58,360 bases of DNA from an uncultured Planctomycetales bacterium (GCA_964373835.1 CAYJWN010000001.1:1-58360), one strand, 5' to 3'. Positions 54,935 through 58,360 are shown, numbered from the stretch's first letter. The notes: generated from the letters alone by a model not told the origin. Numbers and translations are program-made.

Positions 54935-55648
54935 TCATGGCATCTCTGATGCGGTCGTCGCCGCGAGGGCCGGCGTCGGCGTGGGAAACGAGGAGACAAC
55001 CTCCAGCCGTTCATCAGGCAGGGGTGTCGTCGACAAGGACGGCATGCCGGGCATGGGCAGCACGATCATCCGCTCATGGGAGATGCCCAGTGAGAAGAAC
55101 CGCTGCAGGCCTGATGCCATATCGGACAATGAGGAGATGATCAGCCGGTCATAGGCGGAAGGTGGGATCTCTTCGATGCGCTGGACAGGATGCCCCAGAA
55201 AGTGCTGTCGAACGGTGGACTCATCGACGACGCCGACAAGCTCCAGGCCGATTTCTCGAATGATCAGGAAGGCGATCTCGGCCAGCTCCCCGGTCCCATA
55301 CAGCAGGACGCGATGGTGGCCGGTCTGGGCCAGGATGGCGAGCTGCTCGCGCAAGCAATGCCGCACCCGGCCGTACAACTGAAGGGAATACTGAATGAAT
55401 TCGTAGGTCAGGCGGGATTTTTCGAGAATGCCCGTCGGGGTGATCAGGTAGCGAATCCGATTGGGCTTGGTTCCGCTGATCTTGATGTAACCTTTCTTCA
55501 CTAGGCGCCGTAGCATCAAGTTGGCCAGCCCCAGCGCCACGCCGATCCGCTTGGCCAGTTCCCGTTGGGTGGCGCTCGGATTCTGCGTCACTTCCTCAAG
55601 GAGCGACATGTCCCGATAGGAGCTCGGCTCCATGCGGCCTCCAGTCAT
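54935..55648 (-). CDS. Winged-helix DNA-binding protein fused to a Rossmann-like domain (putative regulator)
   Basis: [33 protein letters not shown] (wHTH), then [35 protein letters not shown] overlap at 55645-55648. Confidence 0.6.
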
Positions 55649-55860
55649 GCGCGGCCGCTTTCCTTCCGAAACCAGCTGATGGTGCGCTGCAGTCCCTCAT
55701 CTAACCCGATTTTCGGCTCCCAGGAGAGCTGTTGTCGCGCGCAGGTCAGGTCCGGCCGCCGGTGCTTGGGATCGTCCACCGGCAGGAGACGGAACTCGAT
55801 GCGGCTTCCCGTGACGGGCACGGGCTTCAGGACCGTCAGGGCTAGCTCGCGGGAGTCCCA
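55645..55860 (-). pseudogene. 3-prime remnant (about 70 codons) of a second, divergent UDP-glucuronate decarboxylase-like gene
   Basis: [60 protein letters not shown] parallels [62 protein letters not shown] of the intact gene at 56459. No N-terminal part is present in any frame. Confidence 0.6.
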
Positions 55861-55939
55861 GAGCTTTTTCAGCCGAAGCGAGGCGAGCCCGCGCGTGGGC
55901 TGAATGACAAACGTCGCCTGTTGGCTCATGGGCTGCGCC

Positions 55940-56038
55940 TCACAAACGCCGATAGGTGCGCTCCCGGAATGCCAAAAGCTTCGCCAGATCTTCCGCAATG
56001 AGCTGCAGCTTGCGCTGCACGAACTCAGGGCGCACCAT
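55940..56038 (-). pseudogene. Truncated HepT/HEPN (DUF86) toxin remnant, 32 codons
   Basis: My own translation gives ATG GTG CGC CCT GAG TTC GTG CAG CGC AAG CTG CAG CTC ATT GCG GAA GAT CTG GCG AAG ... TGA, i.e. [32 protein letters not shown]. It starts inside the last 14 nt of the nucleotidyltransferase gene, as in mntA-hepT pairs. It resembles HepT N-terminal helices, but the Rx4-6H part is missing. Confidence 0.45.
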
Positions 56039-56462
56039 GAAGCTCCTGCGAAATGAACGCCATCTTCTTGTGGAACAACGTCTCCTCCAGGGCTCTCAGG
56101 TCAGCCGAGTCCATGAAGTCGCGGTACGCGAAGGCCTTATACTCAAGAAAGTCCAACGGCTCACCATACAGCAGGGTTCCGCCGCTGAGGATCTCGTACC
56201 GGAACAACGGATCGGCTTGGCGCAGCAAGACCACATCCACCTCGTATCCAGCAAAGACATCCGACAACGCCTGGGAGGCGGCCCCCCACCACTCCAGGCT
56301 TCCGTCGCTGCGCCCAACGAGTGCGAGGTCCACGTCACTTTCTGGTCCTGGCGGCGGTGTCCCAGTGGAGCGCGATCCGTACAGGATGACCAGTTGAAGC
56401 CCCAGCTCTTGGCAGACGCGCTCCAGACGTTGCGCGTCATAGCTGACAAACGGCGAGGTCAT
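56025..56462 (-). CDS. Minimal nucleotidyltransferase (MntA-type antitoxin-like), now orphan
   Basis: [26 protein letters not shown] (GS...DxD NTase motif). ATG 56462 forms an ATGA overlap with the UXS stop (56459-56462). Confidence 0.7.
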
Positions 56463-58360
56463 CTGGTGCTCAAAGCGGCAAACCAACCCATCGTGACGGA
56501 AAGCCCCTCCTGTAAGCTGACGCGCGGTCGCCAGCCGTTTAGCAGCCGCGTGGCCACCGTGATATCAGGACAGCGCTGCTTCGGGTCATCCTGCGGCAGG
56601 GGGCGAAACACGATCGGGCTCTTGCTGTTCGTCAACTCGAGGATGCGCTGAGCGAGCGCAAGAATCGTGTACTCCTCAGGATTGCCGAGGTTGACAGGGT
56701 CGTGATAGTCGGCCCGGGTCAGCCGGACAATTCCCTCGACCAGATCGTCAATATAGCAGAAGGAGCGGGTTTGGCTGCCGTCGCCAAACACGGTCAGGGG
56801 TTCCCCGCGGAGCGCTTGGGTGACGAACGCGGGGATTGCGCGGCCGTCTTCGGCTCGCATCCGTGGACCGTACGTGTTGTGGCAAAATACCCCATTCCCT
56901 GCCACGAAATTTTCAGTACCCGGAACGGAGAAGTCGTACACAAAGTTCGTCGGCTCGCAGGGTTCGATCGCGGTAATTTTCGACCAGATCAAATCGCCGG
57001 TTCGCGTGGCGTTGAGGGTTTGCCGAACGCCGGTATCCCACCGTAAGACGTCAAAGGAATCCACCTCGCAGACCGTGACTCTGAAAAACGGAAACCGACG
57101 ATCGCCGTATCGTTGACGAAACCTGGTCGTATACTGTCCTACGGAAGCCACGATCCCAAAACGCAGCAAAAGATACGTCAGATCGGTCGCCAGCTCTTCG
57201 CTCGTGGTGCTGAAGCACAATTCGTTACCGAGTTTTTTCCCACTGTGGGTCCCATCGCCTTCCCGGTAGCCCTCCAAGACATGCTTGACACGAGAGAGCG
57301 GCAACTGCATCACCCACGCTGGAATTCTCTTGTCGCGGAGCACACCGATCATCTCATCGAAGAGCACATACAACAGCTGCGAATGCACAAACAACCCAGG
57401 AGCACGCTGGCGGCTGGCCGGAACCATGACCGTGTGACACCCAAGACCGGTGAGAATCGCTGCGGCCCGATCGAGGAACACCTGGTCCGAGGAGAATGTC
57501 AACAAGGCACTCTTGCCGGGTTGACGATGTGACGAGCCCTCAGCCAAAAAGAACCCAATCAGCCAGAGGAGGTCCGATGTCAGCGGGATCGTGGCTGGAA
57601 GCCGAATACGCGCTCCACCTTTGTAGACACGCAGCTGGGCATCAGACGGAATGGCCACACCCAATCGACGAACCACCGCAAGGGGCAACATCCCTTCGCG
57701 CCAGTACTTCCGCAAAGCGCACGAGAGGCCGTTGTTGAGTCGCTTCGCATGGAATCTGTTGCTAGCAGCCAAGAAGGTACGGATCTCCCCACGACGACGC
57801 TCGATGACCTGCCGCAGTGAGGGGGAGTGGATGGCATAATTCCACAAGGCGTCTTCGGATCGTCGTTGCATCAGTACTTCAGCCAGATGGAACGCCTCCA
57901 CGTCCTTTTCAACGACAGGAACACGCGCTGGAATCGCGACGTAATCACCCACTTGTAGCTGTCGGACAGGAATAGCGGTTGGCTGGCTATGTGCGTCCCT
58001 CGTAAACACGCTATGATCCCCCGTCACCTTGACCCTCCTGCCGTACCGAAGAGACAGGGCGTAGCAGTCCGTGTGACAGGGGTGCTTAATCATTGCGCTG
58101 ACGGGCGCAAGTGAAATTTGACACGTCACTGGATCAAACGTCGGCACCAAGATGCTGGGAGACTCGAGCGCCAACCGTGACTCCACTCGGTTCACGTAGG
58201 TTCCGATCGGTTCAAGATGCATATCATGATCGTTAAAAAGCATCACGGTCTCATCCGCGAGGATGCTGTTAAAGATCCTGACGATGCGCGTATCGACGCC
58301 ATGCGCCCGGTGATAGGCCATCGTCATGGCTTCGGCGAATCGCTTCGCCTCGTCGTAGAC
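56459..58360 (-). CDS. UDP-glucuronate decarboxylase (UXS)/extended-SDR dehydratase-like gene, 5-prime partial (continues beyond the window), interrupted by an intein
   Basis: The reading frame is open to the window edge: [31 protein letters not shown] | intein | [49 protein letters not shown]...[15 protein letters not shown]. The Rossmann N-terminus lies outside the window. Confidence 0.85.
56876..58267 (-). mobile_element. Full-length intein (464 aa) with LAGLIDADG homing-endonuclease domain
   Basis: The intein splits the conserved RIFN|TYGPRM motif. Block [11 protein letters not shown] (Ser1), block [11 protein letters not shown] (TxxH), LAGLIDADG-like [12 protein letters not shown] and [12 protein letters not shown], blocks [25 protein letters not shown], followed by Thr+1. 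Codon positions were verified on the nucleotide sequence (aac 56878-56876, acg 56875-56873). Confidence 0.85.

Follow-up and report, generated by a model that had tools for sequence, protein, structure and literature searches.

A non-functional recombination scar with an orphan antitoxin gene, ordinary and of an already known kind, lies close to one end of the window, by which we mean the whole stretch of 58,360 nucleotides that was analyzed. With a probability of roughly 0.6, we read the scar as the trace of one gene-replacement event, in which a segment made up of a UXS gene, mntA and the beginning of hepT displaced a resident UXS by an illegitimate join. The host probably belongs to Candidatus Omnitrophota; for the regulator at the junction, the best named relative is 72% identical. 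All features of the junction lie on the minus strand, in the gene order UXS, mntA, hepT stub, filler, UXS remnant and wHTH regulator, and a transaldolase gene comes after the regulator. The features are as follows.

56459..58360, minus strand: intact UXS (UDP-glucuronate decarboxylase) with a clade A C terminus (Pfam Epimerase, GDP_Man_Dehyd, Intein_splicing, LAGLIDADG_3)
56876-58267, minus strand: LAGLIDADG intein of 464 aa inside the UXS (extein/intein limits, Pfam)
56025..56462, minus strand: mntA-like minimal nucleotidyltransferase of 145 aa (Pfam Polbeta, homologues)
55940..56038, minus strand: N-terminal stub of hepT (HEPN/DUF86 toxin), 32 codons and a TGA (own HepT profile)
55849..55939, no strand assigned: filler of 91 nt between the two truncated genes (no profile match)
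55645..55848, minus strand: 3' UXS remnant of clade B, 67 codons (55848-55648) and a stop at 55647-55645 (UXS profile, tree)
54935..55648, minus strand: wHTH (MarR/HTH_24-type) regulator (Pfam HTH_24, E 1.5e-11)

The junction was reproduced on contigs of two other sequencing runs, located via an identical mntA protein. These contigs agree with the window over 2.2-2.5 kb across the junction, from the UXS end through mntA, stub, remnant and regulator into the first part of the transaldolase gene, at 99.96% and 100% identity. G+C content is flat across the junction, at 0.59-0.65 throughout, and a search for a G+C step there found none; promoter or terminator sites were also sought at the junction, and none were found.

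The initial annotation had ended the intact intein-bearing UXS at 56459 and coupled it by an ATGA to an MntA-like gene, and both the sequence and Pfam agree. Indeed, the UXS stop codon (TGA 56461-56459) overlaps the mntA start codon (ATG 56462), and the mntA protein matches Pfam Polbeta (E 8.9e-13) and NTP_transf_2 (E 2.4e-5). Its homologues are 46-61% identical, the closest among the matches listed being P0003 (61%) and then P0002 (57%); elsewhere, mntA homologues occupy unrelated contexts. An alignment of the window MntA with five homologues contains 46 invariant columns, including G29, S30, D43 and D45, which the window protein shares by construction, being itself one of the aligned sequences. 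The motif G29 S30...D43-x-D45 is read as GSX12DXD, and its spacer has 12 residues, not 10, in the whole subfamily. As judged from its sequence, mntA looks intact and potentially functional, and it is a predicted orphan antitoxin gene with no partner at the locus. The gene called after the closest homologue, P0003 (L017 2927-3151, L018), is 74 aa long versus about 149 aa, gives a weak HepT-like match, and may be another shortened toxin gene.

The hepT frame opens at ATG 56038, before the end of mntA, so that the two genes overlap by 14 nt (56038-56025), and a TGA ends the frame at 55940. A complete mntA-hepT pair, formed by P0002 (mntA) and P0049 (a 149-aa HepT), has an overlap of the same length, 14 nt (L019, 2916-2929). 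A Pfam search of the 32-aa hepT peptide gave no match. A profile of our own, representing 120 HepT proteins, recognized the stub with its positions 1-33 (38.2 bits, E 2.3e-13), which bears out the initial description of a HEPN partner starting at this ATG, overlapping mntA and stopping after 32 codons. Over 26 aa, the stub is 65% identical to residues 1-26 of P0049. Beyond codon 32 the same profile found no HepT signal downstream in any frame; hence hepT has been removed, and not merely interrupted. The RX4HXY RNase motif, which occupies residues 104-111 in full-length P0049, is absent from the stub, and the stub is therefore unable to be a toxin. What is left at the locus is a predicted remnant of an MNT/HEPN system, with no working member.

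An internal deletion of hepT that kept both the N and C termini was also considered, as a tblastn match of the string 'HLSAFVRR' (in another frame, 55958-55935) to the C terminus of P0049 had suggested it. This match is due to chance, the motif being present in P0049 only, of 120 family members; the frame scored -4.9 bits with the HepT profile, and the C-terminal reading was dropped. The bases at 55958-55935 are better taken as stub codons 27-32, which fit the 'FRDASYEEV'-type sequence of the family. A second MNT/HEPN pair, which is complete, is encoded elsewhere in the same genome (G000 contig C115:2025-2607, minus strand). It belongs to a different, shorter subtype (translation read by eye), and its HEPN protein has the sequence RDRLIH.

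The hepT stub and the UXS remnant are 91 nt apart, so that the gap noted in the initial annotation is present but longer than the 80 nt or so given there. The filler between them matches neither the HepT nor the UXS profile, neither the rest of the genome nor those loci of relatives that were compared with it, and its fold is not unusual (z -1.7). Past the filler, a profile of the UXS proteins of five relatives picked out the remnant over positions 247-310 of 313 (73.7 bits, E 3.1e-24). Profile searches, the check that the initial annotation had proposed for the two stubs, are thus significant for both. The second UXS C terminus that it had described is real; its length is 67 codons instead of about 70, and its identity to the intact UXS is higher than the 40% estimated by eye, amounting to 51% over 53 aa (BLASTP, E 9e-13) and to 46% over all 67 columns. 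At the DNA level the two UXS ends are about 60% alike (conserved marks counted by hand) and share no long word.

Homology of the remnant to UXS is present in the C-terminal segment (…LPxDDPKQRxPD…W.P…L.EGL..T..WF); the N-terminal Rossmann fold (TGGAGFIGS) and the catalytic Tyr/Lys region are not in the remnant, which covers positions 247-310 of 313. In this frame, the 50 codons that precede the homologous part gave no match to the UXS profile, and the boundary of the remnant at about 55848 is therefore sharp. An extension of the remnant further upstream, based on the likeness of 'KKLWDS' to 'RKLMDS', yielded no profile match whatever and was rejected. Homology drops abruptly on either side of the 91-nt stretch.

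The remnant is little decayed. It keeps 20 of 21 strongly conserved UXS columns, and the sole violation, a Q to H change, also occurs in the full-length gene mL086; intact genes violate 0-2 of these columns. When the remnant was compared with L107, the metagenome locus with the closest regulator, dN/dS was 0.30 (dS 0.83), and the N-terminal 88 codons of the regulator gave 0.05 against the same locus, both figures being noisy. These values fit a gene that was under constraint for most of its divergence from L107 and was freed recently. With one of the 21 conserved columns broken in the remnant, the exchange event is probably recent.

The ATGA overlap of the remnant with the wHTH regulator was described correctly in the initial annotation: the stop at 55647-55645 overlaps the regulator ATG at 55648. 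A second in-frame ATG lies at 55633, with a GGAGG ahead of it. It lines up with the start of the homologues (M, four residues and then YRDM), and the resulting 232-aa start was chosen by the gene callers of the two Logan contigs that span the junction. The start codon of the regulator is thus uncertain and may be either 55648 or 55633. Compared with L107, the window has 15 extra nt just after the ATGA (55633-55647), and these contain both the GGAGG and ATG 55633. The insertion may have given the regulator a ribosome-binding site of its own after loss of the coupled upstream gene.

At the other side of the junction, the contig end at 58360 falls within the intact UXS. The 5' 143 codons are missing from the gene, and this N-terminal part is absent from all the rest of the 184-contig assembly. 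The intein, an intact one of the LAGLIDADG type, is inserted between ...RIFN and TYGPRM... (FN/TYGPRM). UXS genes with an intein occur commonly in public data and span many phyla. The intein of the window is rare in its phylum, being found in 2 of 400 other genomes at 51-54% identity, and in both of these a downstream UXS remnant is absent. The closest intein-UXS (P0169/L121) is 88% identical in amino acids and 84% in nucleotides; the genes downstream of it are SxtJ, DUF5989, DegT and GFO, with no toxin-antitoxin (TA) pair. Another intein-UXS (L122 123-2462) is 74% identical to that of the window, yet has a clade-B C-extein; finding the same intein in both UXS clades is expected of a homing element. 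Using the intein-UXS as tblastn query, we obtained further intein-like matches, 25-30% identical to the intein part, on contigs C153, C5, C20 and C14 of the same genome (G000), which appears to hold several inteins.

The intact UXS and the remnant come from two lineages. Of 23 full-length UXS orthologues read from relatives within the order (21 from the same family), none has an intein. Over the last 67 columns, the remnant is nearest to the orthologues of G049 (61%), G046 (57%) and G005 (56%), and the intact copy to those of G044 (63%) and G009 (62%); the upstream extein part of the intact copy is 87-89% identical to G044 and G010. The indel state separates two sets of UXS, and the intact copy and the remnant differ in it. 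In a maximum-likelihood tree built on the 140 C-terminal residues, UXS divides into two clades, each supported 97/99; the intact copy falls in clade A and the remnant in clade B, together with mL086, mL107 and G049. The two were joined in 0 of 200 bootstrap trees. An origin of the remnant by local duplication of the intact UXS is therefore ruled out. G049, from the same family, has two full-length UXS orthologues on different contigs, L134 (G049:C16) and L135 (G049:C45).

Ranking relatives by RpoB fails to name one of the two copies as foreign, both clades having carriers among the closest relatives (87-89%). Since neither copy is callable foreign from phylogeny alone, the direction of the exchange rests on the synteny of L107. 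This locus came from a collection of 36 metagenome loci gathered with the regulator as query, among which its regulator is the closest (86.5% over the 89 aa on the contig). Directly upstream of it lies a complete, intein-less, 313-aa UXS of clade B, with the C terminus ...EGLQRTIAWFRNESRRA followed by the stop. The L107 protein ends in ...WFRNESRRA and the remnant in ...WFRKESGRA, each followed by a stop codon, and the remnant is 65.7% identical to the C terminus of the full-length L107 UXS. In L107, too, the UXS stop overlaps the regulator ATG as ATGA; hence this UXS-regulator overlap is ancestral, and the remnant is the leftover of an L107-like resident gene. The arrangement of L107 is the state that would be expected before the event.

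Other relatives also have the uninterrupted UXS-regulator arrangement that the initial annotation had suggested looking for. In 12 relatives belonging to the order, one contig carries both UXS and the regulator, separated by between 85 nt and about 9.5 kb, and in the metagenome relatives a transaldolase gene follows the regulator. The arrangement of the window itself does not recur as a conserved gene in 119 related loci (570 kb), which contain no mntA or hepT. The UXS-regulator interval varies among relatives. In G016 (L012 3347-5164) it holds a 605-aa multi-pass membrane protein, ATGA-coupled to UXS, and in G013 (L011) it is of about equal length, some 1.9 kb. The regulator orthologue of G013 lies in two frames, of 145 and 156 aa (L011/L083/L084, G013:C90:20579-21231), and is probably frameshifted.

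The core of the initial reading, replacement of a resident UXS, agrees with the clade difference between intact copy and remnant and with the L107 synteny. We infer that the exchange ran from an L107-like ancestor to the present state in a single step, and that the recombination was illegitimate at one of its ends. In the ancestor, a clade-B UXS free of any intein would have been linked to the wHTH regulator by an ATGA overlap of stop and start codons, and the incoming DNA would have consisted of a clade-A intein-bearing UXS, mntA and the first 32 codons of hepT. On the left side, homologous pairing would have taken place within UXS or ahead of it, outside the contig; the left crossover lies past 58360. 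On the right, an illegitimate join would have placed the incoming end, along with 91 nt of filler, near codon 247 of the resident UXS. The toxin would either never have come whole or have been cut at the join, leaving mntA a harmless orphan, and the old UXS would owe the survival of its final 67 codons solely to the adjoining regulator.

One illegitimate join would explain both truncations, that of hepT and that of the resident UXS, at once, so that the later toxin loss assumed in the initial annotation is not needed. Its other assumption, that the intein-UXS and a TA pair arrived jointly, is not backed by the closest intein-UXS (L121), which is without such a pair. Nor does the visible sequence back its third, that the site marks an exchange boundary of the glycan locus, since the left crossover falls outside the contig. 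A donor with the order UXS-ATGA-mntA-hepT was searched for and none was found, the best mntA among the matches listed being 61% identical.

The two genes next to the intact UXS can be compared with type VII HepT/MntA (HEPN/MNT) TA modules such as SO_3166/SO_3165 of Shewanella oneidensis, in which MntA proteins have a GSX10DXD motif, HepT has an RX4HXY RNase motif, and HepT is neutralised by MntA through AMPylation (PMC7641770). As in these modules, mntA of the window lies upstream of hepT in an overlapping frame, its MNT protein belongs to the Polbeta/NTP_transf_2 type and carries a GS...DXD motif, and RX4HXY is present in P0049, a member of the partner family of the stub. In contrast to them, hepT of the window is down to 32 codons, with the RNase motif gone and no toxin left, and the MntA subfamily has a motif spacer of 12 residues instead of 10.

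The event as a whole resembles homology-facilitated illegitimate recombination (for the pattern, see PMC3240628), which has been proposed as the mechanism by which effector genes are displaced in the T6SS and Rhs loci of Vibrio cholerae, with immunity genes and 3' gene ends left as orphans (PMC5361080). The likeness would consist in a conserved 5' anchor (on the side beyond the contig end) combined with a putative non-homologous 3' join, in the 3' end of the old gene being pushed downstream and persisting as an orphan, and in the retention of a protective gene without its toxin. The window differs in that the displaced gene is a housekeeping-type sugar-nucleotide enzyme and no toxin, and in that the orphan antitoxin would have arrived with the incoming DNA and not stayed behind. 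Gene remnants at junctions are also known from exchanged polysaccharide (O-antigen or capsule) clusters. The window shares with these a conserved frame, UXS ... regulator-transaldolase, with an interval of anywhere between 85 nt and 9.5 kb in relatives, and a truncated gene at the junction, but a single junction is visible in it.

Both truncations could also have come from a single deletion, if two copies had first stood in tandem (UXS-A, mntA, hepT, ..., UXS-B, regulator) and a later loss had taken away hepT in its 3' part, any intervening DNA and UXS-B up to codon ~246. In TA systems, the survivable order of loss is that the toxin goes and the antitoxin is kept, which is what such a deletion would have produced, and the two full-length orthologues of G049 are a precedent within the family, though on different contigs. 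However, no tandem UXS pair was seen in the 119 related loci, and 91 nt unlike either gene are not what a clean deletion leaves behind. An earlier acquisition of UXS-A and the TA pair would still be required, which adds steps, and we regard a deletion from a tandem state as unlikely.

Less probable still is a history of separate events, in which the mntA-hepT cassette came and decayed independently of the UXS replacement; a mobile TA cassette could, for instance, have landed on the downstream side of the new UXS, its hepT being cut later by a nonsense mutation or a minor rearrangement. The closest intein-UXS without a TA pair downstream is consistent with such a history, as are the mntA homologues in unrelated contexts, which show that the pair moves on its own. 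But a hepT gene that shows no HepT signal past codon 32 in any frame has been removed, not interrupted, and the breakpoints in hepT and UXS-B, 91 nt apart, are unexpectedly close if they arose independently.

A replacement of the resident UXS by the UXS-mntA-hepT segment leaves room for a more specific trigger, namely the homing endonuclease of the intein itself, an idea that we consider doubtful. The enzyme would have cut the intein-less resident clade-B UXS, and repair would have used the diverged clade-A donor; copying would have continued beyond the end of the donor UXS, taking in mntA and hepT sequence, before the end was joined illegitimately to the resected recipient. Intein homing involves co-conversion of flanking extein sequence, and the locus fits in having a new UXS allele with an intact LAGLIDADG intein at FN/TYGPRM. 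Homing in its normal form is not known to duplicate an extein end or to carry neighboring genes along, in which the window differs. A downstream remnant was looked for at five other intein-UXS loci and none was found, which leaves this trigger unsupported. If it were true, intein homing between diverged alleles would drag neighbor genes along and leave an extein remnant.

We think it very improbable that the remnant frame was retained as a functional leader ORF of 94 or 117 codons (55998 or 55929 to 55645), ATGA-coupled to the regulator. The frame is indeed open over 117 codons, its coupling is ancestral and the decay of the remnant is slight; against this, the 50 codons that lead up to the homologous part are without any match, a search for promoter-like sites gave none, and such a short gene occurs in no relative examined. 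Moreover, the second ATG, 15 nt downstream of the first, has a GGAGG Shine-Dalgarno sequence, lines up with the start of the homologues and makes coupling unnecessary, and the dN/dS of the remnant is six times that of the regulator. An assembly chimera, with the UXS loci of two strains wrongly joined in one contig, might be suspected in a metagenome-assembled genome of 184 contigs with a contig break inside UXS, but it is hardly credible given two independent assemblies of other runs with the same 2.2-2.5 kb and two UXS ends that offer nothing to mis-join on.

Displacement of a resident UXS in a single replacement event is the reading we retain. For annotation, it means that the 32-codon frame and the 94- or 117-codon frame should be entered as pseudogene fragments and mntA as an orphan. 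The scar opens no long-standing question. It is a clean natural case of an orphan MntA antitoxin beside a toxin stub, and the junction dates and orients one exchange, probably recent, at the UXS-regulator junction of a surface-glycan locus in what is probably an uncultured Omnitrophota lineage.
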